Source: an uncultured delta proteobacterium (GTDB lineage Bacteria; Desulfobacterota; RBG-13-43-22). Taken from it: DNA of 64,000 nt. The first letter of the stretch is position 1; each line of letters opens with the position of its first letter. The position numbers and the translations under genes were made by a program. Under the pieces are notes generated by a model. It was not told the origin of the DNA. It ran no database searches and worked only from the letters and a program-made list of their open reading frames with translations. The stretch is taken from positions 416,001 to 480,000 of the forward strand of contig CAWBOS010000006.1 of NCBI GenBank assembly GCA_963790475.1. Direction: 5' to 3'. Below, one piece after another: positions 43,398 through 61,259 of the stretch.

Positions 43398-45873
43398 ATG
43401 AAAACAAAGGGGTCTGAAAGGAGCATTATTATGAAGCTGAAAAATGGGGGTAAGGAGAAAGTCGTTGTGGAAACGGAGAAGAGGAATAAAACGGACCAGC
43501 CGTTGTCGCCCGATCTCCTGCAAAAGATGAACGCTTATTGGCGGGCTGCGAACTACCTCTCGGTCGGGCAGATTTATCTCTACGACAATCCCTTGCTGAA
43601 ACAGCCGTTGAAACTGTCGCACGTGAAGCCCCTGGTGGTCGGGCACTGGGGCACGACGCCGGGTCAGAACTTCATCTATGTGCACCTGAACCGGGTCATC
43701 AAGAAGTATGACCTGGATATGATCTACATCGCTGGTCCCGGTCACGGCGGCCCGGCGCTGGTGGGCAATACTTACCTGGAAGGGACCTACAGTGAGGTCT
43801 ATCCGAACATCAGCCAGGATGAGGCCGGACTTAAGAAGCTGTTCAAACAGTTCTCCTTCCCCGGCGGGATTTCCAGCCATGTTTCGCCGGAGACGCCGGG
43901 GTCGATTCACGAGGGTGGCGAGCTGGGGTACTCGCTCAGCCATGCCTTCGGGGCCGCCTTCGACAATCCGGATCTGATCGTCGCCTGCATTGTCGGCGAC
44001 GGCGAAGCGGAAACCGGTCCGTTGGCAACCGCCTGGCAGTCCAACAAGTTTCTCAACCCAATCAGTGACGGAGCCGTGCTGCCGATCCTGCACCTCAATG
44101 GCTACAAGATCAGCAACCCGACCGTGCTGGCCCGCATCGAGCCTGAGGAACTGGAGCAATTCTTACGAGGCTGCGGCTGGACGCCCTACTTTGTGGAAGG
44201 CGATGAGCCGGAAAAGATGCATCAGCTCATGGCCGCTATTTTGGAAAAGGCCATCGAGGAAATCCGGCAAATCCAAAGTAAGGCACGAAACAAAAATGAC
44301 CATACCCGACCGCGGTGGCCGATGATCGTCCTCAGGTCACCCAAGGGCTGGACCGGACCGAAAGTGGTCGATGGTCTCCAGATTGAGGGCACCTTTCGAG
44401 CCCACCAGGTGCCCATCCTGGTGGATTCCGAGCATCCCGATCATCTCCAGCAGCTTGAAAGCTGGATGAAGAGCTACAAGGCGGAAGAATTATTCGATAA
44501 AAATGGCCGACTCAGGCCGGAACTGGCCGAGCTGGCGCCAAAGGGCGACCGGCGGATGGGCGCCAATCCCCAGGCCAACGGCGGCATTCTGCTGCGCGAC
44601 CTGCGCATGCCGGACTTCCACCTCCATGCGGTGAAGGTGTCTTCGCCCGGCGCCGTTGACGCTCAGGATACGCTCGTGCTGGGCAAGTTCCTGCGGGATG
44701 TAACCAAGCTGAATCAGGATCAGCGTAATTTCCGGATCTTCGGTCCCGACGAAACGCTCTCCAATCTCCTGGGCGCGGTCTTTGAAGTCACCAATCGTCA
44801 GTGGGACGCCCGGGCCGTAAAGAATGATGAATTCCTGGCGCCTGCCGGACGGGTGTTGGACTCTATGCTCAGCGAGCACCAGAGTGAGGGTTGGCTGGAA
44901 GGTTATCTGCTCACCGGCAGGCACGGGCTGTTTAACTGCTACGAGGCCTTCATTCACATCGTCGATTCGATGTTCAATCAGCACGCCAAGTGGCTGAAAG
45001 TCACCTCGCAACTGCCCTGGCGGCGGAAGATCGCTTCGCTGAACTACCTGCTCGCCTCCCACGTCTGGCAGCAGGATCACAACGGCTTCACGCACCAGGA
45101 CCCCGGCTTCCTCGACCACGTCGTCAACAAGAAGGCCGATATCGTGCGCATTTACCTTCCGCCGGACGCCAACTGTCTGTTGTCGGTCTTTGATCACTGC
45201 CTGCGCAGCCGGCATTATGTGAACGTGGTGGTTGCCGGAAAACATGCTCTGCCCCAATGGCTGACCATGGAAGCGGCGGTCGTCCATTGCACCGAAGGAC
45301 TGGGCATCTGGCCATGGGCCAGCAACGACCAAGGCGCTGAGCCGGACGTGGTCATGGCCTGTTGCGGAGATACGCCCACACTGGAGATTCTGGCCGCCGT
45401 TTCCATTCTGCGCCAGCATCTGCCCGAACTGAAAATCCGGGTAATCAATGTCGTCGATCTGATGAAACTGCAGCCCAGCTCCGAGCACCCCCATGGACTG
45501 AGCGACACAGGATTACGACTCACTCTTCACTAAAGACAAGCCGATTGTCTTCGCCTTCCATGGATACCCCTGGCTGATCCACCGGCTGACCTACCGCCGG
45601 ACCAACCGCAACCTGCACGTCCGAGGCTACAAGGAAGAGGGCACGATCACGACGGCTTTTGACATGAGGGTCCAGAATGAGTTGGACCGGTTCCACCTGG
45701 TGCAAGACGTAATCGATCGCCTGCCGCAGTTGGGTGCTAAGGGGGCTTACCTGAAGCAGATGGTTCGGGACAAGCTCGTCGAGCACAAGCAGTACATCGA
45801 CAAGCACGGCCAGGACCTGCCGGAGATTCGGAACTGGAAGTGGAACCAGGTCAACACCGACCAACCTGCATGA
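43398..45873 (+). pseudogene. xfp: Phosphoketolase (Xfp/Xpk) with a +1 frameshift near 45510
   Basis: [27 protein letters not shown] and [12 protein letters not shown]. The C-terminus FAFHGYP...RGYKEEG...WKW lies in the shifted frame. Confidence 0.88.
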
Positions 45874-46482: not shown

Positions 46483-47901
46483 TTAATGAAGCATTCGGGC
46501 CGCAGTTATGGCCAGATCGTAAAAATAGGCCGGAAAAATGCCGCCGCCGATTATGATCATCATCATGATAACGGTCAGCAGTTTAACCGGCCAGGGCAAG
46601 ATAATCCCGGGCAGGTCTTCTTCAGCGGGAAGGAAATAGGCCGCCTTGATCACCAGGGCGTAATAATAAAGGGAGATGGCTACATTGACCATACCGATCA
46701 ATACCAGAAGAAAATAGCCCTTTTCCATGGCTGCCAGGAAAACCAGAAACTTGGCGCTGAAGCCGATGGTCGGGGGGAGTCCTCCGAGACTGAAAAAACC
46801 GAGCAGCAGGGCCATGGCCAGAAGGGGTGATCGACGGTGCAATCCCGCCAAATGGGCAATCTCCAGATCCTGGCCATGGGAGGCTACTTGGGTCAGCACC
46901 AAAAAACAGATGAAGTTCATAACCAGATAGGCCGCGGCATAAAAGATTGCTCCGGCATAACCGCTTTCGTTCAGGCTGAGGATGCCGACGAGTACGTATC
47001 CGGCATGAGCAATGGCGGAGTATCCCAATAATCTTTTCAGGTCCTTTTGAACCAGGGCGGTCAGGTTGCCCAGGGTCATGGAAGCGATGGCCAGGACAGC
47101 CAGGATGTGGACCAAAGGGGTACTGCCGCCGCCGCTCAAGGACAGCATGCGTAACAGGATGGCTATGGCCGCTACCTTGGTCGAGGTGGCGATAAAGGCC
47201 GTCACCTGGTTGGCCGCCCCCTGATAGACCCCCGGTGCCCAGAGCTGAAAAGGGAAGAGGGCCAGCTTGAAGAAAAAGCCGCTTAGAGTGAAAAGCAGGC
47301 CGATAAAGACCATAGGCGAGCCCATCTGGTCAGGCAGTATCTGCAAGAGTTGTGTTACATAGGTGGTCCCGACAGCCCCGTAGAGCAAGGCCAGACCGAA
47401 AAGCATCACCGCCGAGGTCGAGGCTCCGATCAGAAAATATTTGATGCCCGCCTCCAGATGAGGGCCGTCTCCCTTTCGCAAGGGAACCAGAAGGTAGAGG
47501 GAATATCCGGTCAGTTCCAGGGCCACATAAATGGTCAGTAACTCAACACTGCTCACCAGGATCATCATGGCCAGGGTGCAAAGGGTGAGAAGGAAATAAA
47601 ATTCCGGATGGCGTTTCTCCCCGATGCCCTTCAATTCCGAGCAGAGGCAGACGATGAGAAAGACCCCGATGGCCAGTAAGACCTTGAAAAGCTGAGAAAA
47701 GAAATCGACGCGCAAGACCTGTGAAAAAAAAGAACCTTGGCCATGTATTGCCCCCAGGCTGACCACAACACCTCCGGCCGTCAGCCAAAGGGCCAGGAGG
47801 TGGTCCCGCCCGGGGTTGGGCCGGGAGATCATGGCCACAATAAAGAACAGACCGGAGACGAGGAAAAAGTAACCTTCAGGGGCGAGGGGCATCCAGGTCA
47901 T
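46483..47901 (-). CDS. nuoN: NADH-quinone oxidoreductase subunit N
   Basis: EAGIKYF, FKLALFPF, KRLLGYSAIAHAGY; last gene of the nuo operon. Confidence 0.95.
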   Translation of the reverse strand: MTWMPLAPEGYFFLVSGLFFIVAMISRPNPGRDHLLALWLTAGGVVVSLGAIHGQGSFFSQVLRVDFFSQLFKVLLAIGVFLIVCLCSELKGIGEKRHPEFYFLLTLCTLAMMILVSSVELLTIYVALELTGYSLYLLVPLRKGDGPHLEAGIKYFLIGASTSAVMLFGLALLYGAVGTTYVTQLLQILPDQMGSPMVFIGLLFTLSGFFFKLALFPFQLWAPGVYQGAANQVTAFIATSTKVAAIAILLRMLSLSGGGSTPLVHILAVLAIASMTLGNLTALVQKDLKRLLGYSAIAHAGYVLVGILSLNESGYAGAIFYAAAYLVMNFICFLVLTQVASHGQDLEIAHLAGLHRRSPLLAMALLLGFFSLGGLPPTIGFSAKFLVFLAAMEKGYFLLVLIGMVNVAISLYYYALVIKAAYFLPAEEDLPGIILPWPVKLLTVIMMMIIIGGGIFPAYFYDLAITAARMLH

Positions 47902-49391
47902 CGCGGTAAGGTCTCCATAAAGGGCATCACTGCGGTTTGAATCAAATCGAGCATCAACGAAGGAAACAATCCGAATAAGAGCAGGGCCATCACCAGAATC
48001 ATTCGGGGAAGTCCCAAGCCGAAGGAGACATCGGGCAAATGAGCCAGGCGCTCATTACGAGGTCCATAAAAGGTCTTTTGGACCACCCGCAGCATAAAGA
48101 GGGCGCTGACCACCAGAGAGGAGATGGCCAGGATACCTCGAACCGGATAGGTTTTCAAGGAGGAAACAAAGATGGTGAATTCGGCCCAGAAATTGGCGAA
48201 TCCGGGTACCCCCATGCCGGCCAGGGCCCCGAGGATAAAATAGGCCGAGGCCTTGGGCATGATCCGGCTCATCCCCCCCAGTTCCGGAATAAGCTTGGTT
48301 CCGGTGGTGTCATGAAAATATCCGACTGATGAAAAAAGAAGGGCCGTCATGATCCCATGGGCGAACATCTGGAAGACGGCGCCGTTCAGGCCGCCCACGG
48401 TGACTGTGGATAACCCCAGCCCGACGATCCCCATGTGGGAGACACTGGAGTAGGCCACCACGTACTTGAGATCGGTCTGGGTCAGACCGACAAAAACACC
48501 ATAAACGATCCCGATGGTGGCCAGAACGGCCATCGGTTCGGCCCAATATTGCCACCCCAGGGGGCAGAGCAGGATAGCCACCCGCAAAATGCCGAAGGCC
48601 CCTAACTTCATGAGCACACCGGCGTGGATCATACTCACTGATGTGGGAGCGGCTACATGGCCCGTGGGTGACCAGGTGTGGAAAGGCCAGACCCCGGCCA
48701 GGATGCCGAAGCCCAGATAAAGAAAGGGGAAGGCTAATTTTTGTTGAAAGGGGGTAAAGGTCCCGGAGTGCATCAGGCTGATCAGATCAAAGGTGTTCAT
48801 GCCCGATTTGACGAAAAGGTAGAGCAGGGCCGGAAGGATCAGACTGCTTCCGGCCAGGAGATAGAGGAACAGCTTCATGGCCCCGTATTCCTTGCGCGTG
48901 GTGCCCCAGATCAGAATCAGGGGATACATGGGAAAGAGGGAGACATCATACCAGACAAAAAGGAAAAAAAGGTCCAGACTCATGAAGAAGCCGAATACGC
49001 CCATGACCAGCAGAAAAGAGAGGGCAAAGAATTCTTTTACCCTTTCCTCAAGTTTCCACATGGTCAGCACCCCGGTAAAGTGGACAATGCCGGTCAGGAG
49101 CAAGAGCGGCAAATTGAACCCATCGGCCCCGTTGAAGTAATGAATGCCCAGGGATTTCACCCAGAGGACTTTCTCCACAAACTGAAGGCCCCCTTGAGAG
49201 CGGTCATAGGTGATGAATAAGAGGATGGTCAGGAGGAAAGGGATCCCGGAAAAGACCGCACTGATCCAACGGATCAGTGCTTTTCGTTGAGCGGGAATAA
49301 ACAGGATGACCAACAGACCCACCAGGCAACTGAGAAGGATGGCCGTGAGAAAAGGAAATCCGGCATAGGCTATGGGTATATTGAGTTTCAT
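47898..49391 (-). CDS. nuoM: NADH-quinone oxidoreductase subunit M
   Basis: PFHTWSP, GVLMKLG, AYSSVSHMG, QMFAHG. Confidence 0.95.
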   Translation of the reverse strand: MKLNIPIAYAGFPFLTAILLSCLVGLLVILFIPAQRKALIRWISAVFSGIPFLLTILLFITYDRSQGGLQFVEKVLWVKSLGIHYFNGADGFNLPLLLLTGIVHFTGVLTMWKLEERVKEFFALSFLLVMGVFGFFMSLDLFFLFVWYDVSLFPMYPLILIWGTTRKEYGAMKLFLYLLAGSSLILPALLYLFVKSGMNTFDLISLMHSGTFTPFQQKLAFPFLYLGFGILAGVWPFHTWSPTGHVAAPTSVSMIHAGVLMKLGAFGILRVAILLCPLGWQYWAEPMAVLATIGIVYGVFVGLTQTDLKYVVAYSSVSHMGIVGLGLSTVTVGGLNGAVFQMFAHGIMTALLFSSVGYFHDTTGTKLIPELGGMSRIMPKASAYFILGALAGMGVPGFANFWAEFTIFVSSLKTYPVRGILAISSLVVSALFMLRVVQKTFYGPRNERLAHLPDVSFGLGLPRMILVMALLLFGLFPSLMLDLIQTAVMPFMETLPR

Positions 49392-49489
49392 CCCCGGGGA
49401 GCCCCCTTAAATTCTTTTTTTAATGAATTCATAATACATTCCCAGCCATCATCAACCTTGAACCTTGAACCTCGGATTTTCCCCTTCCC

Positions 49490-51355
49490 TCAGGCCAAGA
49501 AAAAATAAAGGCCCACCAAGGCCAGCACGGCGAAGGAGACAAAAATATTGTAACGGAGTCTGCCGGATTGCAGATAGGAGACCACCCGTCCACTGTTCAC
49601 CGTGAATTTACAGAACTCATCAATACCGCCGTCGATCACCTGCTGATCATTTCGGGTAAAAGGATAGGCCAAGGTCCGATAGATCACCCGGTCCAAAAAT
49701 ATTCTGTAAAAATGGTCCAGGTACCATCGCTCGGCCAGAAAATTTCGAATCCTGTCATTCCGTTCGGCAAATCCAACCTGGCTGGCCTTCTTGCGGCCGA
49801 ATTCAACCCAGGTCAGGGCCAGGGCAAGAAGGACCAAGGCCTGAGAAAGATAAGTCAGCCAATGCCCCTCTCCGGCCGGACCAGGCCGGCCCAAAAAATT
49901 TCTTAAAGACCCTTCAAAAAATCCCAGGACCACGATAATGGCCGCCAGAATAACCAGCGGCCAGGCCATGGCCCAATAAACCGGGCCACCGGGCCTTTCC
50001 CCAGAAGAGTTTTCCCGCTCTATTTTTTTAGGAAAGAGAATGATAAAGATCGCTCTGAAGGTGTAATAGGGAGTCAGGAAGACACCGGCCAGGCCGATGA
50101 TCAGCCAGAGGGGATTGTCCAGACGGGCCAGGGACTCCAGGATGGCCTCTTTGCTGAAGAAACCAGCCAGAGGGGGAATGCCGGAAAGGCTGGCCCCGGC
50201 CAGGATAAGACAGACCGTGGGGATTTTTAGACTGCGGCCGGGAAGTCGCCCGATTTCGAACATGTCGTTGGTCTCATAGTAGTGTATCCAGGCTCCGGAG
50301 CAAAGGAAGAGCAAGGACTTAAATCCGGCATGGGTGGTGAGATGAAAGATCCCGGCAAAGTATCCCCCGGCGGCCAGGGCCATAATCATATACCCTAATT
50401 GACTGATGGTCGAATAAGCCCAGACCTTTTTGATGTCCCGGTCCACCATGGCCATGGTGGAGGCCATCAGCATGGTGATGGTGCCGATGGCCAGAAAAAC
50501 AGTCATGGCCTCCGGGGAATGACTGAAAAAGGGAAAAAGCCGGGCGAAAAGGTAAACGCCGGCGGCCACCATAGTAGCTGAATGGAGCAATGCGCTGACC
50601 GGCGTTGGTCCTTCCATGGCATCGGGCAGCCAGGTCAGAAGCGGGAATTGGGCGCTTTTGCCCACAATTCCGCCAAAAATTAAAAGGGCCGAAAGGGTGA
50701 TCAGCCCTGAAGACATTCGTGCCGAGGCCTCAGGGCCGTTCATTTCCAGGATGCTGAGATTGCCCAGATGAAGCAGCACCAGGAGAAGCCCGAGAAAAAA
50801 AGCACCGTCCCCCAGGCGGGTCATGACAAAGGCCTTTTTCCCCGCCTCGGTGGCACTGAACTTCTCGTACCAGAAGCCGATCAAAAGATAGGAGGTAAGG
50901 CCGACCAGTTCCCAGAAGAAGTAGAGCTGGACCAAAGAGGCGGAAAGAGTCAGGGACATCATAGCCCCGGCAAAAAGAGATTGAAAGCCAAAGTAGGTGG
51001 AAAATCTCGGATCCCCGGACATGTATCCCAGGGAATAGACCTGGACCAGTAAACTGATTCCGGCAACCACCAAGAGCATGAGCAGGCTGGTAGGGTCCAG
51101 CAAGAAACCAAATGAAATGGAAGTGCTCCCGCTGACCAGCCACCGGGTGGTATAAAGGAGGGGATGATCCGGATGGTTCAGAAGCAAAAAAAGGGCATTG
51201 ATCAGGGAAATAGAAACCGCCCCGACAGATAATCCCCCAGAGATCCTGGGATAGGGCCGGGTCAGGATCATGATGACCGCAAAGGCCAGGAAAGGGAGCA
51301 TGACCGCCGTTGCTGCCGCCAGGAGGGTCGGGTCTTGAAAGAGGTTTTGGATCAT
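49490..51355 (-). CDS. nuoL: NADH-quinone oxidoreductase subunit L
   Basis: WELVG, GKSAQFP, WLPDAMEGPTPVSALLHSATMV. Likely start is MIQNLF at 51355. Confidence 0.95.
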   Translation of the reverse strand: MIQNLFQDPTLLAAATAVMLPFLAFAVIMILTRPYPRISGGLSVGAVSISLINALFLLLNHPDHPLLYTTRWLVSGSTSISFGFLLDPTSLLMLLVVAGISLLVQVYSLGYMSGDPRFSTYFGFQSLFAGAMMSLTLSASLVQLYFFWELVGLTSYLLIGFWYEKFSATEAGKKAFVMTRLGDGAFFLGLLLVLLHLGNLSILEMNGPEASARMSSGLITLSALLIFGGIVGKSAQFPLLTWLPDAMEGPTPVSALLHSATMVAAGVYLFARLFPFFSHSPEAMTVFLAIGTITMLMASTMAMVDRDIKKVWAYSTISQLGYMIMALAAGGYFAGIFHLTTHAGFKSLLFLCSGAWIHYYETNDMFEIGRLPGRSLKIPTVCLILAGASLSGIPPLAGFFSKEAILESLARLDNPLWLIIGLAGVFLTPYYTFRAIFIILFPKKIERENSSGERPGGPVYWAMAWPLVILAAIIVVLGFFEGSLRNFLGRPGPAGEGHWLTYLSQALVLLALALTWVEFGRKKASQVGFAERNDRIRNFLAERWYLDHFYRIFLDRVIYRTLAYPFTRNDQQVIDGGIDEFCKFTVNSGRVVSYLQSGRLRYNIFVSFAVLALVGLYFFLA

Positions 51356-51428
51356 TATGGTCTCTATAATTTCATCAAGAAGGTTTTGATTTTGAATCTT
51401 TATTTTTTCGAAATAAGTGGTCAGAAAC

Positions 51429-51496
51429 ATCACTCCGGCGAAAGCCGGAGTTCAGGATTAATCGATTTACTGGATTCCGGCTTCCGCCGGAATGAC
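51429..51496. repeat. REP-like composite palindrome between nuoK and nuoL
   Basis: ATCACTCCGGCGAAAGCCGGAGTTCAG...CTGGATTCCGGCTTCCGCCGGAATGAC: two hairpin units in inverted orientation. Confidence 0.8.
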
Positions 51497-51572
51497 TCAA
51501 AACGGATTTCTTGACTGTTAGCGATTCCGGCATTCTTAGTTGTCCCCCTTATTCTATTGATCAACTACCCGG

Positions 51573-51878
51573 CTACCATTTCAAGATATTAAAATGGTCC
51601 GGATCAACGGACCCGCTGCGCAGGTAGGCCCCGACGATCAGGGCCAACCCCACCGAGACCTCGGTGGCGGCCACACCAATGATGAACAGGACAAAGGCCT
51701 GTCCTTCCAACTGCTGCCAGCGCAAGGCCCCGGCCACAAAGAGGATGGCGGCCGCGTTCATCATGATCTCTATGCCGATCAAGGTCATGATCAGATTACG
51801 CCGGGTCAGTAAACAAACGAGACCCAGTAAAAAAATGATCGCCGCCAGGATGACCACATGATTATAAGGAACGATCAT
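51573..51878 (-). CDS. nuoK: NADH-quinone oxidoreductase subunit K
   Basis: RRNLI, IEIMMNA, GQAF, AATEVSVGLA. Confidence 0.95.
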   Translation of the reverse strand: MIVPYNHVVILAAIIFLLGLVCLLTRRNLIMTLIGIEIMMNAAAILFVAGALRWQQLEGQAFVLFIIGVAATEVSVGLALIVGAYLRSGSVDPDHFNILKW

Positions 51879-52393
51879 AGACTCTCCTCACCCGGACTTT
51901 TTCCCTTAACCCTTCCCAGTTGAATAACGGCCACCAGACCGATGAGCAGAAGAAGGGAGATCATCTCCACGGAAAGCCAGTACCTCTCGAAGACGAAGCG
52001 TCCCAGGGCCTGGGGCGTGGCCACAGCCATCTTTAGAGGGATACGGCTCCGGGGATCCAGAAAAACCAGCAGACAGGCCAAGACAAAATAGATCAGGCCC
52101 AAAAAACCAGCCGGGGCCCAGTTCCGCCACTTCAATCGGGCCTCGATGATCACCTCAGCCTTCAGCATCATAATCACAAAGAGGAACAGGACCATGATCG
52201 CGCCGGCATAGATAATTACCTCCAAAGCCGCTAAAAAGGGGGCTCCGAGGAGATAAAAAAGCATGGCGCTGCCCAGGAAGGAAAGGATCAGATAAACCAC
52301 GGCATGAACGGGATGGGGACGGGTGATGGCCAGGGCCGTGGCCGTCAGGATAACCGCCGAGACGAGATAAAAGCAAAGGGCGTAAAAGGTCAT
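51875..52393 (-). CDS. nuoJ: NADH-quinone oxidoreductase subunit J
   Basis: PVHAV, IIYAGAIMVLFLFVIM. Confidence 0.95.
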   Translation of the reverse strand: MTFYALCFYLVSAVILTATALAITRPHPVHAVVYLILSFLGSAMLFYLLGAPFLAALEVIIYAGAIMVLFLFVIMMLKAEVIIEARLKWRNWAPAGFLGLIYFVLACLLVFLDPRSRIPLKMAVATPQALGRFVFERYWLSVEMISLLLLIGLVAVIQLGRVKGKSPGEESL

Positions 52394-52968
52394 GGCCAGT
52401 TACTCCTTAAATCCACCGGTTTTTTTTCATTGATGTGCCCGCCCTTGCCCCCGGCAATAGTAATTCCGGCATGGCGATAAAAATTATAGTCATGGTTTTT
52501 TCCACCGTGATCCACCAAAAGGTCTTCCTTTTCCGCAACCAGCGTTAGGACATCATAATTGCTGAATTCGAAATAAGGGGTCAGTTGAATGGCCAGAGTA
52601 GGACACGCCTCCTCGCACAAGCCTCAGTAAATACAACGGGCGAAGTTGATCCGGAACCAGGGGGCCCAGCGCCGCCCGTCTTCCCGTTCGGCTGACTGCA
52701 TGGAGATGCAACTGACCGGGCAGACGGCCGAACATAGATAACAGGCCACACACCGTTCCTCACCGTCCGGATCCCGGGTGAGGATGATCCTGGCCCGGGT
52801 ACGAGCGGGTAGAGGCCTTTTATACTCCGGGTACTGCTCGGTGACCGGTTTTCGAAAGAGATGTTTAAAAACGGTCCAAAAACCCTTAGCCAATCCCGGT
52901 AGGGCATCAGACCATATTTTTCTCAACTGGGAAGGGCTACTTCTTTTTTTTGAATGGTTATTGATCAT
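52390..52968 (-). CDS. nuoI: NADH-quinone oxidoreductase subunit I with an in-frame UGA at codon 115 (Sec candidate or nonsense/error)
   Basis: [14 protein letters not shown] and [12 protein letters not shown]. ORFs 52624..53172 and 52390..52620 are in the same frame, separated only by TGA GGC. Confidence 0.9.
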
Positions 52969-53963
52969 CTCATACTCCCCATCCATAACATGATCCCGCC
53001 GGTTACCATAATATTGAGCAGCGCAATAGGGATGAGCACCTTCCAACCCAGGTCCATGAGTTGATCGTAACGCAGCCTGGGCAAGGTGGTCCGCATCCAG
53101 ATCATAAAAAAAACAACGGCCAGGACCTTGATCGAAAACCAGACCAGCGGCGGGAGTCCGGGGCCGTGCCAACCTCCCAAAAAGAAAACGGTCGTCAACC
53201 CCCCCAGGACGATCAGGGTCACATATTCTCCTAAAAAATAAAGACCGAAGCGCATCCCGCTGTATTCCAGATGATAGCCGGCTACCAGTTCACTTTCGGC
53301 TTCGGCCAGATCAAAGGGAATCCTTTTGCTTTCCGCCACGGCGCTGATAAAAAAAATGATCATGGCTATGGGCTGCACCAAGATGAATGGATAGGATGCT
53401 TGGGCAGCGACGATCTCCACCAGGCTGAACGACCGGGTCATCATGACCACCGGGACCAGGGAAAGCCCCAAGGAAAGTTCATAGCTGATCATCTGGGCGG
53501 CACCGCGGATACCCCCCAAAAAGCTGAATTTGGAATTGGAGGCCCAGCCCCCCAAGGCTATCCCGTAGACACTGATCGACGAGAGGGCCAGCACATAAAG
53601 GAGTCCGATGTTAAGATCGGTGACGACCATAGGAATGGGAAGACCCTTAAAGGTCATCCCTTTTCCGAAGGGGATGACCGCAAAAATGAGCAAGGCCGTG
53701 GAGGCCACCACCGCCGGGGCCAAAAGAAAGACGATGCGGTCCGCTCCTTGAGGAACCGTGTCTTCCTTGGTCAGCATTTTAATGATATCGGCCAGGGGTT
53801 GAAGAAGCCCGAACGGACCAGCCCGGTTAGGACCGTAGCGGACCTGTAGCCGTCCCAAGAGCTTCCGTTCGGCCAGAGTCAAATAGGCGGCCGACAAGAG
53901 TAAGACTACCAACACCAGACCCAGCTTGATCAAAAGGATAATGAATCCTAATATCCAGATCAT
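52965..53963 (-). CDS. nuoH: NADH-quinone oxidoreductase subunit H
   Basis: [47 protein letters not shown]. Confidence 0.96.
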
Positions 53964-56470
53964 ATCCGCCCCCTGCTTTTTTGGATTCGATCCGGGGTCA
54001 ATCGGATGGGAAAGTTGGTTATTTTTTGCCAGGCCAGTTGCTCATGACGGGGCAGGATCATGACTCCCGCTGCCAGGTGATCATTCAGATCTATGGCCAC
54101 TTCCAAGGGGCCGCCGTCGAGAGATAAAATCGCCCGATCCCCTTTCTGGAGACCTAATCGAGTTCCCTCTTCAGTCGAGATGGTGAGACGGGGTTTTTCC
54201 TCCACTTCCCGAATCGGTTCCGAATAAGTGGAAAGCTCTTCGGTGGCAAAAGTCCACTCGACCAATAGGAGTTCAATCTGATCTGGTGAACTGACTTTTT
54301 TATCCGGGGGTAAGGATTCAGTCAGGGGAAAAAGATTCTCCCGCGTCTGAGGGGAAAACAGGCGTATTTCATCTTCAGGGTGATTCAAGCCCTGGAGAGG
54401 AGAGAAGATCGGATTTTCATGGGCCAGTTCCGTCCACAGGGTATCGAGGGAAAGGTCCGACCCGGGGGATAGAAGATGTGACAATTCGGACAAAATATTC
54501 CACGCCGGCCTGGGCTCCCCTCCGGGAATATCCTGGCCGAACTGACGGGGGGGGTGCCCCCCGCCGCAGACCTGTTCAAGGGGAAGACCGCCGCGATAAA
54601 TCGCAGGAGCCCATTGGACCCGTCCTTCCTGATTGATGAAATGCCCACCGGCCTCGAAGACCGTTTGGGTGGGGAGGAAGAAATGGGCCTGTCGGACCGA
54701 GGCGGAAGGCAGGTAGTCCATGACCAGTAAACAGTCCAGTTTTTTTAAGGCCCGTTCCAAAAGGGTTCTATCCGGAAAGAACCGGAATGGATCGGCCTCA
54801 ACCAGGATCAACCCGGCGATTTCCCCTTTTTCCATCGCCTCCAGGGTCTTTGGAAAAGAACGGTCTGGGGGCGAGAGCAGGGCCGCGCCAAAAGAGTTGG
54901 CCCCAGGCAGCAAGTAGAAAAGACCGGCCCGCTGTTCCTGGGCTTGAAGCAAAAGGACCAAATCGGCGGCTAGGGTAGGGGTGGTGGGCCTGACGATGTC
55001 CGTGCCGCAGACGATGACCGGCCGATGACTTTGTTTTAGCCCATGAGCAATTTCCATAAAACGGGTGTGAATTAAAGGATCGGGGGTGTAGGTATCGGGG
55101 AGGGCCTCATAAAATCGGAGGGCTTCTGTTCCCGTCTTTTCAGCCGTTGAAGGATTGACCGCCTTTTTGAGAATAACGCTCAGGCAAAGATCCAGTTCGT
55201 CCGGTCTAACCGTCAGGGTTTCAAAGTTCAGGGGAAGAAAGACCGGGCGAGGGTCGATGACCACGATGGAGGCCCCTGCTCTAAAAGCCTGTCTTAAGGC
55301 CAGGGCCGACAGGGGGGCTTCATTGATCGGATCCGCTCCCACCACCAGAATGAAATCCGCTTGCTCGATCTCCCTCAAGGAAATGGAAATCCGGGCATCA
55401 GTCCTGGAAACCGCCCTTTGGATCGCTCTTTCTCTTAGGGGATCGATCAGATATCCAGGGTCGGGCCACCCCTGGGTCCGGCAAAGACCTTTAAGCATGG
55501 CCTGGGTCTCCAGAGAACTTCTTGACGAACCCTGACAGGCAACAGACTCTTTTCCGAATTTTTGGATCAGGCTGGAGAACTTTTTGGCTGCGGCCTGAAG
55601 GGTCTGATCCAGGGGAACTTCGTCCAATCCTATTCTGGCCCGGCGCGGTCTCTCCGGATGGTTGGCATAATCAAAGCCATATCGCCCACGGTCACAAATA
55701 AAATATCCGTTGACCTTGTTGCTGAAACCGGCTTCCTGGCGTACCACTTGCCGGTAGCGGACGCTGGTCACGACCCGGCAGCCCAGGGAGCAATGGATGC
55801 ATAGAGAAGGACCTCGCTCGAAATCCCAGCGCCGTCCTTTATAACGAGAAGGTTTATCGGTCAGGACCCCGGTGGGACAGAGATCGATGATATTGCCGGA
55901 AAAGGGGTTTTCCAGAGGTCCGTCGTTGAAGCGGCCTAAATAGGTCCGGTCGCCGATCCCCAAGGCGCCGAAATCCCGATATCCGGCAAACTCCTGATAA
56001 AAGCGACGGCAGCGATAACAGTGGATGCAGCGGTTCATTTCATGCTGGACAAAAATCCTGAGTTCCTGATCGATATAAGTCCGTTTCCGGCCGGGATAGC
56101 GCCGCATCCCATGACCGCCGGCCACGGTCAGGTCCTGGAGCAGACAATGGCCGCCTTCATCGCACACCGGGCAGTCATGAGGATGATTCATCATCAACCA
56201 TTCGATGACCGAACGGCGAAAATCGACAGCTTCATCAGCGGTGGTGGAGACCACCATGCCATCCCTGGCCTCTTCCATACAGCTCATCTTCACCCCTTTG
56301 ATCGGGCCTTCCAGGAACATTACCGCGCACATCCGGCAGGCCCCGAGGGATCCCAATGCGGGATGAAAGCAAAACCTGGGGATGATGATCCCCAACTCTT
56401 CGGCTGCTTCGATGACTTTGGTCCCTTTGGGGACATCTATGGTCAAGTTATCGATGATGATATTAGGCAT
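53960..56470 (-). CDS. nuoG: NADH-quinone oxidoreductase subunit G
   Basis: PRFCFH...GACRMC, HPHDCPVCDEGGHCLLQD, RCIHCYRC, CPTG, and the extra cluster CIHCSLGC...C. Confidence 0.95.
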   Translation of the reverse strand: MPNIIIDNLTIDVPKGTKVIEAAEELGIIIPRFCFHPALGSLGACRMCAVMFLEGPIKGVKMSCMEEARDGMVVSTTADEAVDFRRSVIEWLMMNHPHDCPVCDEGGHCLLQDLTVAGGHGMRRYPGRKRTYIDQELRIFVQHEMNRCIHCYRCRRFYQEFAGYRDFGALGIGDRTYLGRFNDGPLENPFSGNIIDLCPTGVLTDKPSRYKGRRWDFERGPSLCIHCSLGCRVVTSVRYRQVVRQEAGFSNKVNGYFICDRGRYGFDYANHPERPRRARIGLDEVPLDQTLQAAAKKFSSLIQKFGKESVACQGSSRSSLETQAMLKGLCRTQGWPDPGYLIDPLRERAIQRAVSRTDARISISLREIEQADFILVVGADPINEAPLSALALRQAFRAGASIVVIDPRPVFLPLNFETLTVRPDELDLCLSVILKKAVNPSTAEKTGTEALRFYEALPDTYTPDPLIHTRFMEIAHGLKQSHRPVIVCGTDIVRPTTPTLAADLVLLLQAQEQRAGLFYLLPGANSFGAALLSPPDRSFPKTLEAMEKGEIAGLILVEADPFRFFPDRTLLERALKKLDCLLVMDYLPSASVRQAHFFLPTQTVFEAGGHFINQEGRVQWAPAIYRGGLPLEQVCGGGHPPRQFGQDIPGGEPRPAWNILSELSHLLSPGSDLSLDTLWTELAHENPIFSPLQGLNHPEDEIRLFSPQTRENLFPLTESLPPDKKVSSPDQIELLLVEWTFATEELSTYSEPIREVEEKPRLTISTEEGTRLGLQKGDRAILSLDGGPLEVAIDLNDHLAAGVMILPRHEQLAWQKITNFPIRLTPDRIQKSRGRI

Positions 56471-56529
56471 AGTACCAGTTAGTTCACTAGATTTTGGGTT
56501 CCTTCAGCCCCTGCGACGGGCAGGAGTCT

Positions 56530-57813
56530 TCAGCCTGTTTTCATGCTGAAGGGACACTTCTTCTGGGAGATGTGCTCCTGAATCTCCTCGACAAAATCCT
56601 CCACCAAACCCGTGACCGGAGTGGCCGCCCCAGGGGCAAAGGCGCAATAGGAATACGACATAAAGCCGCTCATTTTCTTGAGAAGGGGGATGTATTCTTC
56701 TTTCCCGTCACCGGCCTCAATGCGCTGGAGCAGTTCCCGAATATAAGGCAGCCCCTCGCGACAAGGGGTGCAGAACCCGCAGGATTCCCGGGCAAAAAAC
56801 TGAATCAAATTCAATGTAGCTCCTACCAGGCAGGTTGTATGATCGAAAACCATAATGGCCCCGGTGCCGAAACGATGTCCGTGGCCCATTTTTTGAAAAG
56901 ATTCAAAATCCATTTCGATATCATGATATTTTTTTGGCAGAAAGCGGGTGGAGGCGCCGCCGGGTAAACAGGTTTTGTATTCATAACCGGGCTTCATTCC
57001 ACCGGCATGAATTTCAATGATCTCCGATAATGGGGTCCCGAAAGGCAGTTCGAAACACCCCGGTTGAAGGACCCGGCCGCTGACGCTGTAAATCTTATGG
57101 CCTACGGCGGCCTGGCTTCGGGCCAGATTCCGAAACCATTCGGCACCGTTTTTCAGAATGTGAGGCACGTAGGCCAGGGTTTCGGCGTTATTGATGATGG
57201 TGGGTTTTTCCCAGAGCCCTTCGCTGGTCAAGTGTCCTTCCAGGTTGGGATAAGGTCTTTCCCCTTCCAGGGCATGGACCAACCCCTTGGCTTCACCGCA
57301 AATGTATCTTCCCCCGCTGCGATGAATAACCAGATCGAGGCTGTAAGGGCCTCCCAGGATATTATGGCCCAGCAAACCGGCCTGTCTGGCTTCTTCAGCC
57401 GCCTTTTCCAATACCTGGGCGCAGGCTTCATAGGCCGGCCTGATAAAAACATACCCCTTTTCGGCCGAGGCCGTATAGCCAGCAATGATTAAACCTTCAA
57501 GTAGGGCATGGGGGTTGTGCTGAACCCAGAAACGGTCTTTAAAGGTTCCCGGTTCCATTTCATCGGTGTTGGCGATCACATATCGAGGGAAGGAGGCCTC
57601 TTTTCTAAGAGACCACTTTTGGCCGGTGGGAAAACCGGCTCCTCCCAGGCCTCGAAGGCCTGAGTCCGTTATAATTTGAACGATCTCCTGAGGGGAATAG
57701 CGGCCTAGGGCCATGGCCAATCCCTGATAGCCTCCCATTTTCTTATAGGCTTCCAGAAAGAAGGTCTGGTCGGCCTTTTCTTTTTGGAGAATCAAAGGGG
57801 GATGCTGCTCCAT
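56530..57813 (-). CDS. nuoF: NADH-quinone oxidoreductase subunit F (divergent nucleotide site)
   Basis: GGAGFPTG, DEMEPGTFKDR, YICGE, ESCGFCTPCREG, CAFA. Confidence 0.93.
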   Translation of the reverse strand: MEQHPPLILQKEKADQTFFLEAYKKMGGYQGLAMALGRYSPQEIVQIITDSGLRGLGGAGFPTGQKWSLRKEASFPRYVIANTDEMEPGTFKDRFWVQHNPHALLEGLIIAGYTASAEKGYVFIRPAYEACAQVLEKAAEEARQAGLLGHNILGGPYSLDLVIHRSGGRYICGEAKGLVHALEGERPYPNLEGHLTSEGLWEKPTIINNAETLAYVPHILKNGAEWFRNLARSQAAVGHKIYSVSGRVLQPGCFELPFGTPLSEIIEIHAGGMKPGYEYKTCLPGGASTRFLPKKYHDIEMDFESFQKMGHGHRFGTGAIMVFDHTTCLVGATLNLIQFFARESCGFCTPCREGLPYIRELLQRIEAGDGKEEYIPLLKKMSGFMSYSYCAFAPGAATPVTGLVEDFVEEIQEHISQKKCPFSMKTG

Positions 57814-58307
57814 CAGCGGACCTCTTCCTGTGGAGGTTTCCAGTCTCTTAATCGTTGAAGGATTTCATCTATCGATTCGGGATCCAGAGGGCCGTACAAT
57901 TTTCCATTAATCAACATGGCCGGGGCATGGTCGCAATAACCGATACAGCCCGCCGGCAGAAGGGTAAATAAGCCGTCTTCGGTCGTTCCTCCCAAGGCAA
58001 TACCGAGGCATTGACTGAGATAACTTATAACCGATTGGTGGTTGAACATCCAGCACATGAGGCCGTCACAAACATGGATCACATACTTCCCAACCGGCCG
58101 ACGGTAGATAAAATCGTAAAAAGTGGCCAGCTCCTCCAGTTCCAGAGAGGTCATCCCCAGCAAGAGGGCTCCTTCCTGAAGGGCCTCGTCACTCAAGTAC
58201 CCGTGGTGTTTTTGCAGGGCGAACATGACCTCCACGGCCAGTTCACGGGGGTGATCGGATCCCTCTATTTTGTTTCTCAAAATATTCAATGTTTCTTCAG
58301 GTAACAT
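57813..58307 (-). CDS. nuoE: NADH-quinone oxidoreductase subunit E
   Basis: ATFY, VCDGLMC, CIGYCDHAP. Confidence 0.94.
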   Translation of the reverse strand: MLPEETLNILRNKIEGSDHPRELAVEVMFALQKHHGYLSDEALQEGALLLGMTSLELEELATFYDFIYRRPVGKYVIHVCDGLMCWMFNHQSVISYLSQCLGIALGGTTEDGLFTLLPAGCIGYCDHAPAMLINGKLYGPLDPESIDEILQRLRDWKPPQEEVR

Positions 58308-58405
58308 TGCTTTATTCGCAGTATGGCATAATGCTCAATATTGAAAGCTCCAAACTCAAAGCTCAAAGAAAAAATCCAATTGGGAAATTCGTAAATCAAT
58401 AGCCC

Positions 58406-60862
58406 TCATCGATCAATATCCGGTAAAATATAGTCAATAGAACCGATGATGGAAAGCAGATCGGACACCAGACCGCCGCGGGCCATCAAGGGCATGGCTT
58501 GCAGATTGGCAAATCCGGGGGTTCGGATGCGCATCCGGTAAGCCATATTAAGACCGTCGCTGACCACATAATATCCCTGCTCCCCGCGAGGAGCCTCCAC
58601 GGCCGTATAGGCCTCCCCCCTGGGGATCTTAGGGCCCCGAGTGACATTGATAAAATGGTAAATCAGGCTTTCGATATCCTTCAGGGTATCGCTTTTCTTG
58701 GGCACCGCATAGCGATAGTCATCGGTAGTATAACGACCGCCGGGCATCTTGCGCGCGGCCTGTTCGATAATCCGCAGGCTCTGGCGCATCTCTTCGACCC
58801 GGACCTGATAACGGGCATAGCAGTCCCCCTCCTGGGCATAAGGGATATCGAAATCAAATTGCTCATAAGAGGAATAGGGGAACTGCTTGCGCAGGTCCCA
58901 TTGAAGTCCGCTGGCCCGCAAGTTCGGGCCGGTTACCCCCCATTCCATGGCCTGCTCCAGGGAAAGAGTGCCGACGCCTCGGGTACGGACCTCAAAAATG
59001 GGGTTTCGGGTGGCCAGGGCCTCATAGTCCTTGATCCGGGCTGGAAAAATTTTTATGAAATCATCTATCGGTTTCTTCCAGCCTTCCGGCAGGTCGTCGG
59101 CCACGCCTCCGATGCGAAACCAGGAGGGATGGAGACGCCCGCCGGTGATATGCTCGATAATATCCATGATCTTTTCACGGTCCCGAAAGGTATAAAAGAC
59201 CGGGCCGATGGCCCCCAGGTCCTGCAGAAAGGTGCCGAACCAGACCAGGTGATTACTCAGACGAAAAAGTTCACCCAGCATCACCCGGATGTATTGTGCC
59301 CGTTCGGGGACTTGGATTCCTGTCAGGGTCTCTACCGAATGAAGGTAGGCCAGGTTGTTGTAGACACCGGAGAGATAATCCACCCGATCGGTATAGGGGA
59401 TGAATTGATGCCAGGATTGGCGCTCACCGATCTTTTCCACCGAACGGTGGTGATAGCCGATGTCCATGTCGATATCGGAGATCCTTTCCCCTTCCAGGGC
59501 CAGGACAAAACGCATCAGGCCGTGGGTGCCCACATGATGGGGGCCCATGTTCAAGAACAGCCTTTCATCGTCGCGGTCTTTTCTTCGGATGATGATCCCG
59601 GCATCGAGGGGCTGATATTTTTGGGCATCGGCCCGCGTATAAGGAGGCATCTCAGTGGCCCGGCCGGGATAATTCTTCCGTAAAGGATGCCCTTGCCAAT
59701 CGTGGGGCAGGAGGATCCGGCAAAGGTTGGGATGGCCCTCGAATCGGATACCGAAAAGATCATAGACTTCCCGCTCATACCAGTCGGCCGAAGGCCAGAT
59801 ATCGGTGATGCTCTTGGCCTTCGGGTCTTTCCCGGTCAAAGGGACCTTCAAGCGCAGACGCCCGGCCGGTTGGAAAGAAAGCAGGTGATAGACGAGGGTA
59901 TAATCCGGATAAGCCTGTTGATCCGGAACTCGGGGCTGATTCCGGCTGATCTCTTTTCCGACCGTTCCGTCGTAAGAGTTAAAATTTCCCCGATCCCTGC
60001 GGGCCGATTCATCCACGGCCGTCAGATCATCCAGCCGCAGAAATCTGGGACTGGATTCGGTTTTTAAAAAACGCAGGACCTCTTTGATCCGTTCCTCAGC
60101 TACTTTAAAGGTCACCATATCCGAAGGGTCAAGGGTTTGATCGACCGCCTGGCCGAATCGTTCCTTTAAAACTTCTGTCAAAGAACGGTCCCGGTCGTTC
60201 AAGGTGATCCTGGGGGGCGGTGGTGTCCACATCAGATCAGACCGGCTGTCCCAAAATTGCGGCGGGGTGACGGATGTGCCTCTGATGGGGATCCCTTGAT
60301 AACCCGGCCCCCGGGAATCCCGGGCCTTGGTCTGTCCGTCGATCAGAATAGGCTTTTGAGATCCCTGCGTCCCTCCGGCCAGATGCAAGATCGGACGAGT
60401 CGGTTTTTCCTTTTCAATTTTTTTCTGCAGCAAGACCAAACCTTCCAGGACGGCTTCGGGCCGAGGAGGACAGCCGGGGATGTAGACATCCACCGGCAAT
60501 ATCTGATCGACGCCCTGGACCACGCTGTAACAATCATACATACCCCCGCAGTTGCTGCAAGACCCCATGGAAATGACCCATTTGGGCTCCGGCATCTGTT
60601 CATAGAGCCTCAAGATAATGGGGGCCACCTTTTTAAAAATAGTGCCGGAAGTGATCAGGAGATCCGATTGACGGGGGGAGCCGCGAAGGACCTCGGCCCC
60701 GAAACGGGCCATATCATAGCGGGGAGTCAGGGCCGTTGACTCCTCGATAAAGCAACAGGACAATCCGAAAAAGGAAGGCCAGAGGCTGTATTTTCGGGAC
60801 CAGTTGATCAGCAGATCCAATCGGTCCAGGGTCTTATTTTTGAGCCGATCGAAATGTTTCAA
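58406..60862 (-). CDS. nuoBCD: Fused NADH-quinone oxidoreductase subunits B/C/D
   Basis: NuoB ([19 protein letters not shown]), NuoC ([17 protein letters not shown]) and NuoD ([26 protein letters not shown]) in one frame. Start uncertain; TTG 60862 chosen. Confidence 0.92.
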
Positions 60863-61259
60863 AATGATATATCCATTCCAGTCCCTGTTTCTTCCAGATA
60901 TATACCAGACCGGCCAGCAAAAGGATGATGAAAACAGAAATTTGAAGCCACCCGGTCCATCCCAGATCGGTAAAGGCCACGGCCCAGGCCAGGATGAAGG
61001 CGGCCTCGACATCGAAGATCAGAAAGAAAACCGCCACCAGATAAAAGGGGACGGGATAAGAAAACCCTGCCGGACCGGTGGGAATGATGCCGCATTCATA
61101 GGGCCTTTTTTTTTCGGTGCTGATCTTCTTTTCCCCGAGCCAGGAAGCCAGGAAAAGAAGAAGGGCTATCAAAATCAGTATCATCAGGCCATATAGAAAA
61201 AGGGCCGTCAGACCCGGTTCCCAAGGAGATAAGATAATCATTGGGGGTATAGGTTGCAT
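60834..61259 (-). CDS. nuoA: NADH-quinone oxidoreductase subunit A
   Basis: [23 protein letters not shown]. Confidence 0.94.

Follow-up and report, generated by a model that had tools for sequence, protein, structure and literature searches.

Complex I is among the best-studied redox enzymes, and the ligands of its iron-sulfur clusters, to our knowledge, are described as cysteine throughout, bar the histidine ligand of N5. What, then, is to be made of a complex I gene in which one of those cysteine codons is a UGA? The gene is nuoI, found in a stretch of 64,000 nucleotides (hereafter the window) from an uncultured delta proteobacterium of the GTDB lineage Bacteria; Desulfobacterota; RBG-13-43-22 (GenBank assembly GCA_963790475.1, contig CAWBOS010000006.1, positions 416,001 to 480,000 of the forward strand). 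The original prediction put forward a candidate selenocysteine-containing NuoI, and the comparisons on which it could have foundered all came out in its favor: the TGA is real, the selenocysteine (Sec) machinery is present in the genome, and homologs supply both Sec/Cys pairs and an RNA element confined to the TGA forms. Judged from these sequence comparisons, the UGA at codon 115 is very probably decoded as selenocysteine, and NuoI probably constitutes a new selenoprotein family that uses a known decoding mechanism. The features on which the argument turns are as follows, with window coordinates, and with offsets in the RNA counted from the U of the UGA.

52390..52968, minus strand: nuoI coding sequence, 192 amino acids plus a terminal TGA, with the internal UGA read through
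52717..52752, minus strand: first CxxCxxCxxxCP motif (Cys73, 76, 79 and 83), with cysteine at all four positions
52600..52635, minus strand: second CxxCxxCxxxCP motif (Cys112, Sec115, Cys118 and Cys122)
52624..52626, minus strand: in-frame UGA, proposed to encode Sec115 (counting from Met1), at the second ligand position of the second motif, equivalent to Cys102 of Escherichia coli NuoI
52627..52629, minus strand: codon -1, TAC, which places a C just 5' of the UGA
52592..52616, minus strand: stem-loop resembling a selenocysteine insertion sequence (SECIS), +11 to +35, eight interrupted pairs
52598..52614, minus strand: invariant 17-nt core GAGGAGGCGUGYCCUAC, +13 to +29, exclusive to the TGA forms
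52603..52607, minus strand: apical loop CGUGU, +20 to +24, which begins 16 nt past the UGA and has G and U as its second and third bases

Read codon by codon, the minus strand runs TGT ATT TAC TGA GGC TTG TGC GAG GAG GCG TGT CCT, with the TGA at 52626-52624. Translation table 11 splits nuoI into two open reading frames (ORFs); with TGA translated as U there is a single protein that ends in a normal NuoI C-terminus, closed by a second TGA at 52392-52390. The ATG of the gene overlaps the stop codon of nuoH (ATGA). With a C placed at the UGA, the full-length read-through protein scores 269.1 bits against the NCBIfam equivalog model for NuoI, NF004536 (cut-off 212), and 149.2 bits against TIGR01971 (cut-off 113.05). 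Its nearest solved relative is E. coli NuoI (PDB 7awt chain I, 7awt_I; E 8.9e-61), to which it aligns with no gaps over both cluster motifs and with the E. coli-type C-terminal extension included. The second motif, C-x-x-U-x-x-C-x-x-x-C-P, matches C99/C102/C105/C109 of the E. coli protein column by column, with the UGA on Cys102. The claims that the TGA replaces the second cysteine of the motif and that the frame continues to a normal C-terminus are thus both upheld, the one by the minus-strand sequence and the E. coli alignment, the other by the translation. Fold family, motifs and place in the operon are those of E. coli NuoI (the Nqo9, TYKY, NDUFS8 family of 2x[4Fe-4S] ferredoxin-type subunits), the difference being the UGA at the Cys102 equivalent. 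Neither of the two ORF fragments produced by table 11 has an exact match in the protein collection. Among the nearest full-length database proteins, 120 of which were listed, the seven that were fetched all have Cys at this position, and no record annotated with U was among them.

The same codon recurs well beyond this assembly. Contigs from sequencing runs of three other studies (X2, X3 and X8) span 52603-52633 and are identical in the codon and in the element behind it. No RNA run was among those listed for the locus. Orthologs at 83-89% identity occur in 8 of 41 related genomes, four with TGA (G000, which is this genome, G009, G014 and G016, representing three genera) and four with Cys (G003, G006, G007 and G017). 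Of the 80 nearest NuoI loci in species-representative genomes, 78 have Cys and two have TGA at the column, and E. coli NuoI also has Cys. An IUPAC pattern that fixed the peptide context and admitted TGA only was scanned against species-representative genomes and metagenome contigs; it matched nine species-representative contigs and 32 metagenome contigs, every one a NuoI with an in-frame TGA and full continuation. Pooling with the earlier loci brings the total to 47 loci and 36 distinct 81-mers, with 10 species-level genomes including this one. Searched in all six frames for TGA at any of the four Cys positions of CxxCxxCxxxCP motifs that have open flanks, the whole genome yielded nuoI alone.

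A quick maximum-likelihood tree, unrooted, was computed for 115 distinct NuoI genes, of which 35 have Sec and 80 have Cys, a ratio that does not represent a frequency because the metagenome scan targeted TGA forms only. Fragments lacking the first motif, distant paralogs (L014-L035) and rows without a FRIN-type motif were excluded. The Sec label changes 12 times on this tree, with at least four changes forced by well-supported branches, and the direction of change is not readable from an unrooted count. Sec and Cys forms appear as immediate neighbors in L011/L008, L006/L007-L010 and L134/L047, and L043 lies inside a clade of 22 Sec forms; one subclade contains both L012 (Sec) and, near it, L013 (Cys). 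L118, from a metagenome-assembled genome (MAG) binned as Nitrospirae, and L119, from a MAG binned as Chloroflexota, represent another NuoI subtype, CIF-U-GFCEEACPTYAIQL, about 55-60% identical. Both share the TGA and the 17-nt core with the other Sec forms, which may reflect independent gain, transfer or mis-binning; coverage of the L118 contig is about 1.

The sequence GAGGAGGCGTGYCCTAC occupies +13 to +29 in 35 of 35 Sec forms and in 0 of 80 Cys forms. For a comparison at constant protein sequence, we took 33 Sec and 20 Cys sequences that encode an identical peptide starting G[LF]. In this set, codons +4 to +9 after the UGA are GAG, GAG, GCG, TGY, CCT and ACT in the Sec forms, with entropies of 0-0.5 bits; at codons +4, +5, +6, +8 and +9 the entropy is at most 0.2 bits, whereas the same codons are variable in Cys forms, which use GAA/GAG, mostly GCC, CCC/CCT/CCG and mostly ACC. 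Flanking codons vary equally in the two sets. Across the whole gene, 8 of 109 degenerate codons for conserved residues have an entropy below 0.25 bits in 26 Sec forms, and six of these eight lowest-entropy codons are -1, +4, +5, +6, +8 and +9, a clustering at the UGA with a hypergeometric P of 2.8e-6 (2.9e-4 when corrected for 104 windows). Synonymous sites elsewhere are near saturation, with synonymous divergence (dS) of about 0.5 to more than 1 between Sec forms. There is a constraint at the RNA level, and it is present only where the codon is UGA.

The constraint extends to the codon before the UGA. Of 33 Sec forms, 32 have TAC at codon -1; of 20 Cys forms with the same peptide, nine do, and TAT is about as frequent as TAC among them. 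Among 30 distinct Sec sequences, the base just 5' of the UGA (alignment column 3) is C in all 30, the codon being TAC or TTC and never TAT or TTT. This invariant C may possibly reflect a context requirement for Sec insertion.

The element can be drawn as a hairpin, in the form that the original prediction described: GAG(G)AGG/CCU(A)CUC, with a loop CGUGU that starts 16 nt after the UGA and has G, then U, at loop positions 2 and 3. RNAfold favors a related register in which A28 and U30 are bulged and the pairs are G11-C35, C12-G34, A14-U32, G15-C31, G16-C29, A17-U27, G18-C26 and G19-C25. In every one of the 35 Sec forms the loop begins 16 nt past the UGA; it reads CGUGU in 30 and CGUGC in five. 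G stands at loop position 2 in all 35 of these, versus 1 of 20 same-peptide Cys forms. The bSECISearch consensus for bacterial elements calls for a loop 16-37 nt after the UGA, with G (usually GU) within the first two loop positions.

Several observations weigh against a conventional SECIS here and, to that extent, against Sec decoding. The warning in the original prediction that the hairpin is weak proved well founded: its minimum free energy is -6.0 kcal/mol against a dinucleotide-shuffle mean of -7.29 (z = +0.58), and of 200 shuffles 142 are as stable or more so. Over 30 distinct sequences 99.2% of paired cells are kept, but five of the eight pairs never vary and none of the eight changes on both sides, so that the case for the structure rests on sequence invariance, with no compensatory change. 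Homologs furnished the TGA/Cys pairs at this column and the TGA-specific element that the original prediction had looked for in them, but not the covariation in the hairpin. In three variant sequences (ACC UAC, ACC UAU and ACC UUA) the hairpin is kept only in the bulged-A register. A search of Rfam with window positions 52300-52900, at E up to 10, returned four chance-level matches and no SECIS family. The stem has just 3 bp on the loop side of a bulge or mismatch, and no more than eight interrupted pairs overall, and is much weaker than the perfect stems of 6-8 bp in the other SECIS elements of the genome. An independent-pairs test of the signature against the UGA, limited to supported branches, found agreement in 4 of 4 pairs, for which the sign-test p is 0.125. 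Finally, although SelB scores above cut-off in four of five other Sec-NuoI genomes tested, no SelB above cut-off was found in the 2.2-Mb MAG that holds L118.

The genome itself is equipped to decode UGA as Sec, and all four components whose presence was in question are encoded. Its tRNA-Sec is the sole tRNA with anticodon UCA among 51; SelA is encoded by an intact copy on the 3.2-kb contig C20; SelB scores 390.6 bits (cut-off 242); and SelD is encoded by a gene that itself contains a TGA. One in-frame TGA with a hairpin behind it also occurs in each of six further genes, one fdhA-like and five FlpD/MvhD, making this a selenoprotein-rich genome with at least seven TGA-containing selenoprotein genes besides nuoI. 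These genes, each with a hairpin of 6-8 bp and a GG-type loop, are located as follows.

G000 C10:1969676-1970587: selD
G000 C10:596139-596870: fdhA-like gene
G000 C15:541426, C15:276474, C6:161481, C13:145167 and C10:34576: five FlpD/MvhD-family genes

As in all of these, nuoI has its UGA at a Cys position, an element 3' of it, a G (then U) among the first two or three loop bases and a full set of machinery in the genome. Read off the sequence, the loop of the selD element is 5 nt long (CGGGA, +20 to +24), and the nuoI loop likewise begins at +20; loops of the fdhA and flpD elements begin at +22 to +24, and a wider reading of all these elements puts their loop starts between +20 and +26. The prototype of bacterial selenoprotein genes with an in-ORF SECIS read by SelB is E. 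coli fdhF. SECIS elements usually vary between families, and in this respect the nuoI element, almost invariant in sequence across lineages, is unusual.

Might the UGA be read through without Sec, by a near-cognate tRNA that inserts Trp, Cys or Gly with promotion from the downstream sequence, leaving a standard residue at position 115? The atypical character of the element as a SECIS (short, interrupted and no better than shuffles) would fit such a mechanism. But Cys is the residue replaced in every case, as is characteristic of Sec/Cys pairs, and Trp or Gly would be unable to ligate a cluster. The only tRNA with anticodon UCA is tRNA-Sec, and the G-U of the loop sits at the position and distance expected for SelB. 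TGA also serves as a real stop: it is the terminal codon of 12 of 33 complete Sec-form nuoI genes, this gene included, so UGA has not been reassigned. We regard read-through by a standard amino acid as very unlikely.

A second alternative, that the UGA terminates translation, would leave NuoI cut after 114 residues or made as two polypeptides, and this second complex I altered or inactive. The two ORFs under table 11 would allow this, a TTG two codons past the UGA could start the second of them in this genome, and a second, distant NuoI paralog is encoded on C10. The split, however, would fall within the cluster-binding motif, and at the restart codon most Sec forms have CTC, CTT or TTC and not TTG, which means that no restart is conserved. 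Purifying selection on the downstream part is plain. The median ratio of nonsynonymous to synonymous divergence (dN/dS) is 0.047 downstream of the UGA versus 0.03 upstream (127 usable pairs from 26 full-length Sec forms), and every Sec form that reaches the gene end has the full C-terminus, in the same frame and with no indel. Because the downstream frame is under selection, the UGA must be read through; under termination, moreover, the frozen synonymous sites would have no role. We consider termination highly improbable. The neighboring NuoH, NuoJ and NuoG of Sec-form loci are undamaged wherever the locus extends over them; what looked like internal stops in these three proteins at four such loci proved to be the terminal stops of the genes.

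That the TGA is a sequencing or assembly error, or marks a young pseudogene made by a single TGC to TGA substitution, gains something from the real defects of this error-prone long-read assembly (a frameshifted selA, duplicate small contigs and a truncated phosphoketolase ORF), but it is refuted by the same base call in nine other species-level genomes, 32 metagenome contigs and the contigs from the three other studies, besides the selected downstream frame and the TGA-specific conserved element, and its probability is close to negligible.

The assembly comprises 6.34 Mb in 20 contigs, with a contamination figure of 9.68. On contig C13 selA (G000 C13:443527-444625) is frameshifted, in four frame pieces, while the copy at C20:712-1809 is intact and 99.1% identical. 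Ten other small contigs are duplicates, at 94-99.8% identity, of regions of the large contigs. The broken and intact selA pair and the duplicate small contigs together indicate that the assembly mixes strain variants, carries indel errors, or both. Within the window, a phosphoketolase ORF (XFP_N, XFP; 43398-45533, plus strand) ends after 90 of the 202 positions of XFP_C; this truncation is probably one of the lesions of the 39-46 kb block, by frameshift or assembly indel.

Flanked by nuoH and nuoJ, nuoI is part of a complete complex I operon, established from ORFs and matches to Pfam and NCBIfam. The other nuo genes (A, the BCD fusion, E-H and J-N) are open and each matches its own family, in agreement with the earlier observation that they show no clear lesion.

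46483..61259, minus strand: complete complex I operon, nuoA to nuoN
61259-60834, minus strand: nuoA
61012-58406, minus strand: fused nuoBCD
58307-57813, minus strand: nuoE
57813-56530, minus strand: nuoF
56470-53960, minus strand: nuoG
53963-52965, minus strand: nuoH (PF00146)
52393-51875, minus strand: nuoJ (PF00499)
51878-51573, minus strand: nuoK (PF00420)
51433-49490, minus strand: nuoL
49391-47898, minus strand: nuoM
47901-46483, minus strand: nuoN

NuoB, NuoC and NuoD form a single ORF of 868 amino acids (58406-61012, minus strand). As annotated, the first 180 nt or so of this ORF overlap nuoA, and the true start is therefore probably further downstream. In the sister pair L011 (G009, Sec) and L008 (G003, Cys), the sequence just 5' of nuoI is unlike the end of nuoH; the 3.5-kb locus of L011, the one member of the pair tested, has no NuoH match.

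If the UGA of nuoI is decoded as Sec, the process would run as follows. SelB-GTP carrying Sec-tRNA(Sec) would bind a short mRNA element 13-31 nt past the UGA, namely the 17-nt core with its interrupted hairpin and its loop CGUGY. Sec would be inserted at codon 115 to give the full-length NuoI of 192 amino acids. With Sec115 at the second cysteine position of ferredoxin motif 2, one of the two [4Fe-4S] clusters in NuoI, presumably N6b, the electron donor to N2, would then have a selenolate ligand in place of a thiolate. We infer each of four parts of this scheme: SelB as the reader, Sec as the residue, the binding of selenium to iron, and the cluster affected.

The assignment to a cluster follows from analogy. 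In 2x[4Fe-4S] ferredoxin folds, one cluster is bound by ligands 1-3 of motif 2 plus the last ligand of motif 1. In clostridial ferredoxin, the motif-1 cluster is contacted by an aromatic residue that lies seven positions ahead of motif 2. The cluster-environment table for the E. coli structure puts Phe92 near N6a, and Leu48, Cys74 and Leu116 near N6b (PMC8357420). Taken with the ferredoxin geometry, the position of Phe92 near N6a implies that N6b is the motif-2 cluster, so that Sec would ligate N6b; that it does so, adjoining N2, seems likely to us. A ligand list for N6a and N6b was not found in the available portions of PMC8357420, PMC10068793, PMC7434922 and PMC6616624.

The frequent alternation of Sec and Cys has a possible explanation in the code itself. 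The conserved peptide E-E-A-C-P-T is encoded by an RNA that is partly self-complementary (GAGGAGG / CCUACYC). In the Cys form L007, for example, the differences from the Sec element are limited to GCC/GCG and ACC/ACT, with TGC/TGA in addition. A handful of synonymous changes would therefore give any NuoI of this kind the element, which would explain repeated switching between Sec and Cys. The fuller proposal, which we hold at somewhat better than an even chance, is of a complex I with a selenolate-held [4Fe-4S] cluster on its main electron wire, probably N6b beside N2, that occurs in two exchangeable isoforms, Sec and Cys, among anaerobic Desulfobacterota as well as in a few MAGs from Nitrospirota or Chloroflexota bins; its minimal SECIS would lie latent in the codons of EEACPT, a peptide universally conserved in NuoI, and selenium would tune potential or oxidative robustness. 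As to the effect of selenium, one may speculate about a shift in potential, longer Fe-Se bonds and oxidative robustness.

Full-text literature searches turned up no report of Sec in NuoI, although supplementary tables of selenoproteome surveys could list one. PF02508 is a family that we take to belong to Rnf/Nqr and not to Nuo. In the parts available, the 2026 inventory of prokaryotic selenoproteins covers 119 families and subfamilies, none of them NuoI or another Nuo subunit; its entry "NADH:ubiquinone oxidoreductase subunit E" carries PF02508, and it lists Sec in or beside Fe-S motifs in MvhD/VhuD, HdrA, the NF005503 Fe-S protein, 2Fe-2S proteins and HgcB (PMC13188914). Nuo is mentioned neither in the deep-Sep paper (PMC12013277) nor in a paper on group 4 hydrogenases (PMC13582414), and the accessible text of the Desulfoplanes genome paper (PMC13713477) has both terms in unrelated passages and nothing on Sec in NuoI. 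For mycobacterial complex I, the portion available describes clusters ligated by Cys except for His contacts at N5 and N6b (PMC10068793). Like the listed selenoproteins with Sec for Cys in a metal or cluster motif, the proposed NuoI has Sec where the Cys of homologs holds a redox metal center, and it too occurs in selenoprotein-rich anaerobes; unlike them, its Sec lies within a canonical CxxCxxCxxxCP motif of a main electron-transfer chain.

One consequence concerns annotation: gene callers that halt at TGA report nuoI as truncated or split, and complex I may be scored as incomplete in the genomes concerned. The element, very short and invariant in sequence, may help to define the minimal needs of SelB recognition in this phylum. 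If decoding as Sec is true, selenium would enter the electron-transfer chain of complex I, and a core respiratory enzyme would join the selenoproteome. The natural Sec/Cys pair at a single ligand would then offer a ready-made test of what a selenolate does to potential, electron-transfer rate and oxygen sensitivity, and the energy metabolism of these wetland and sediment anaerobes would be tied to the supply of selenium.

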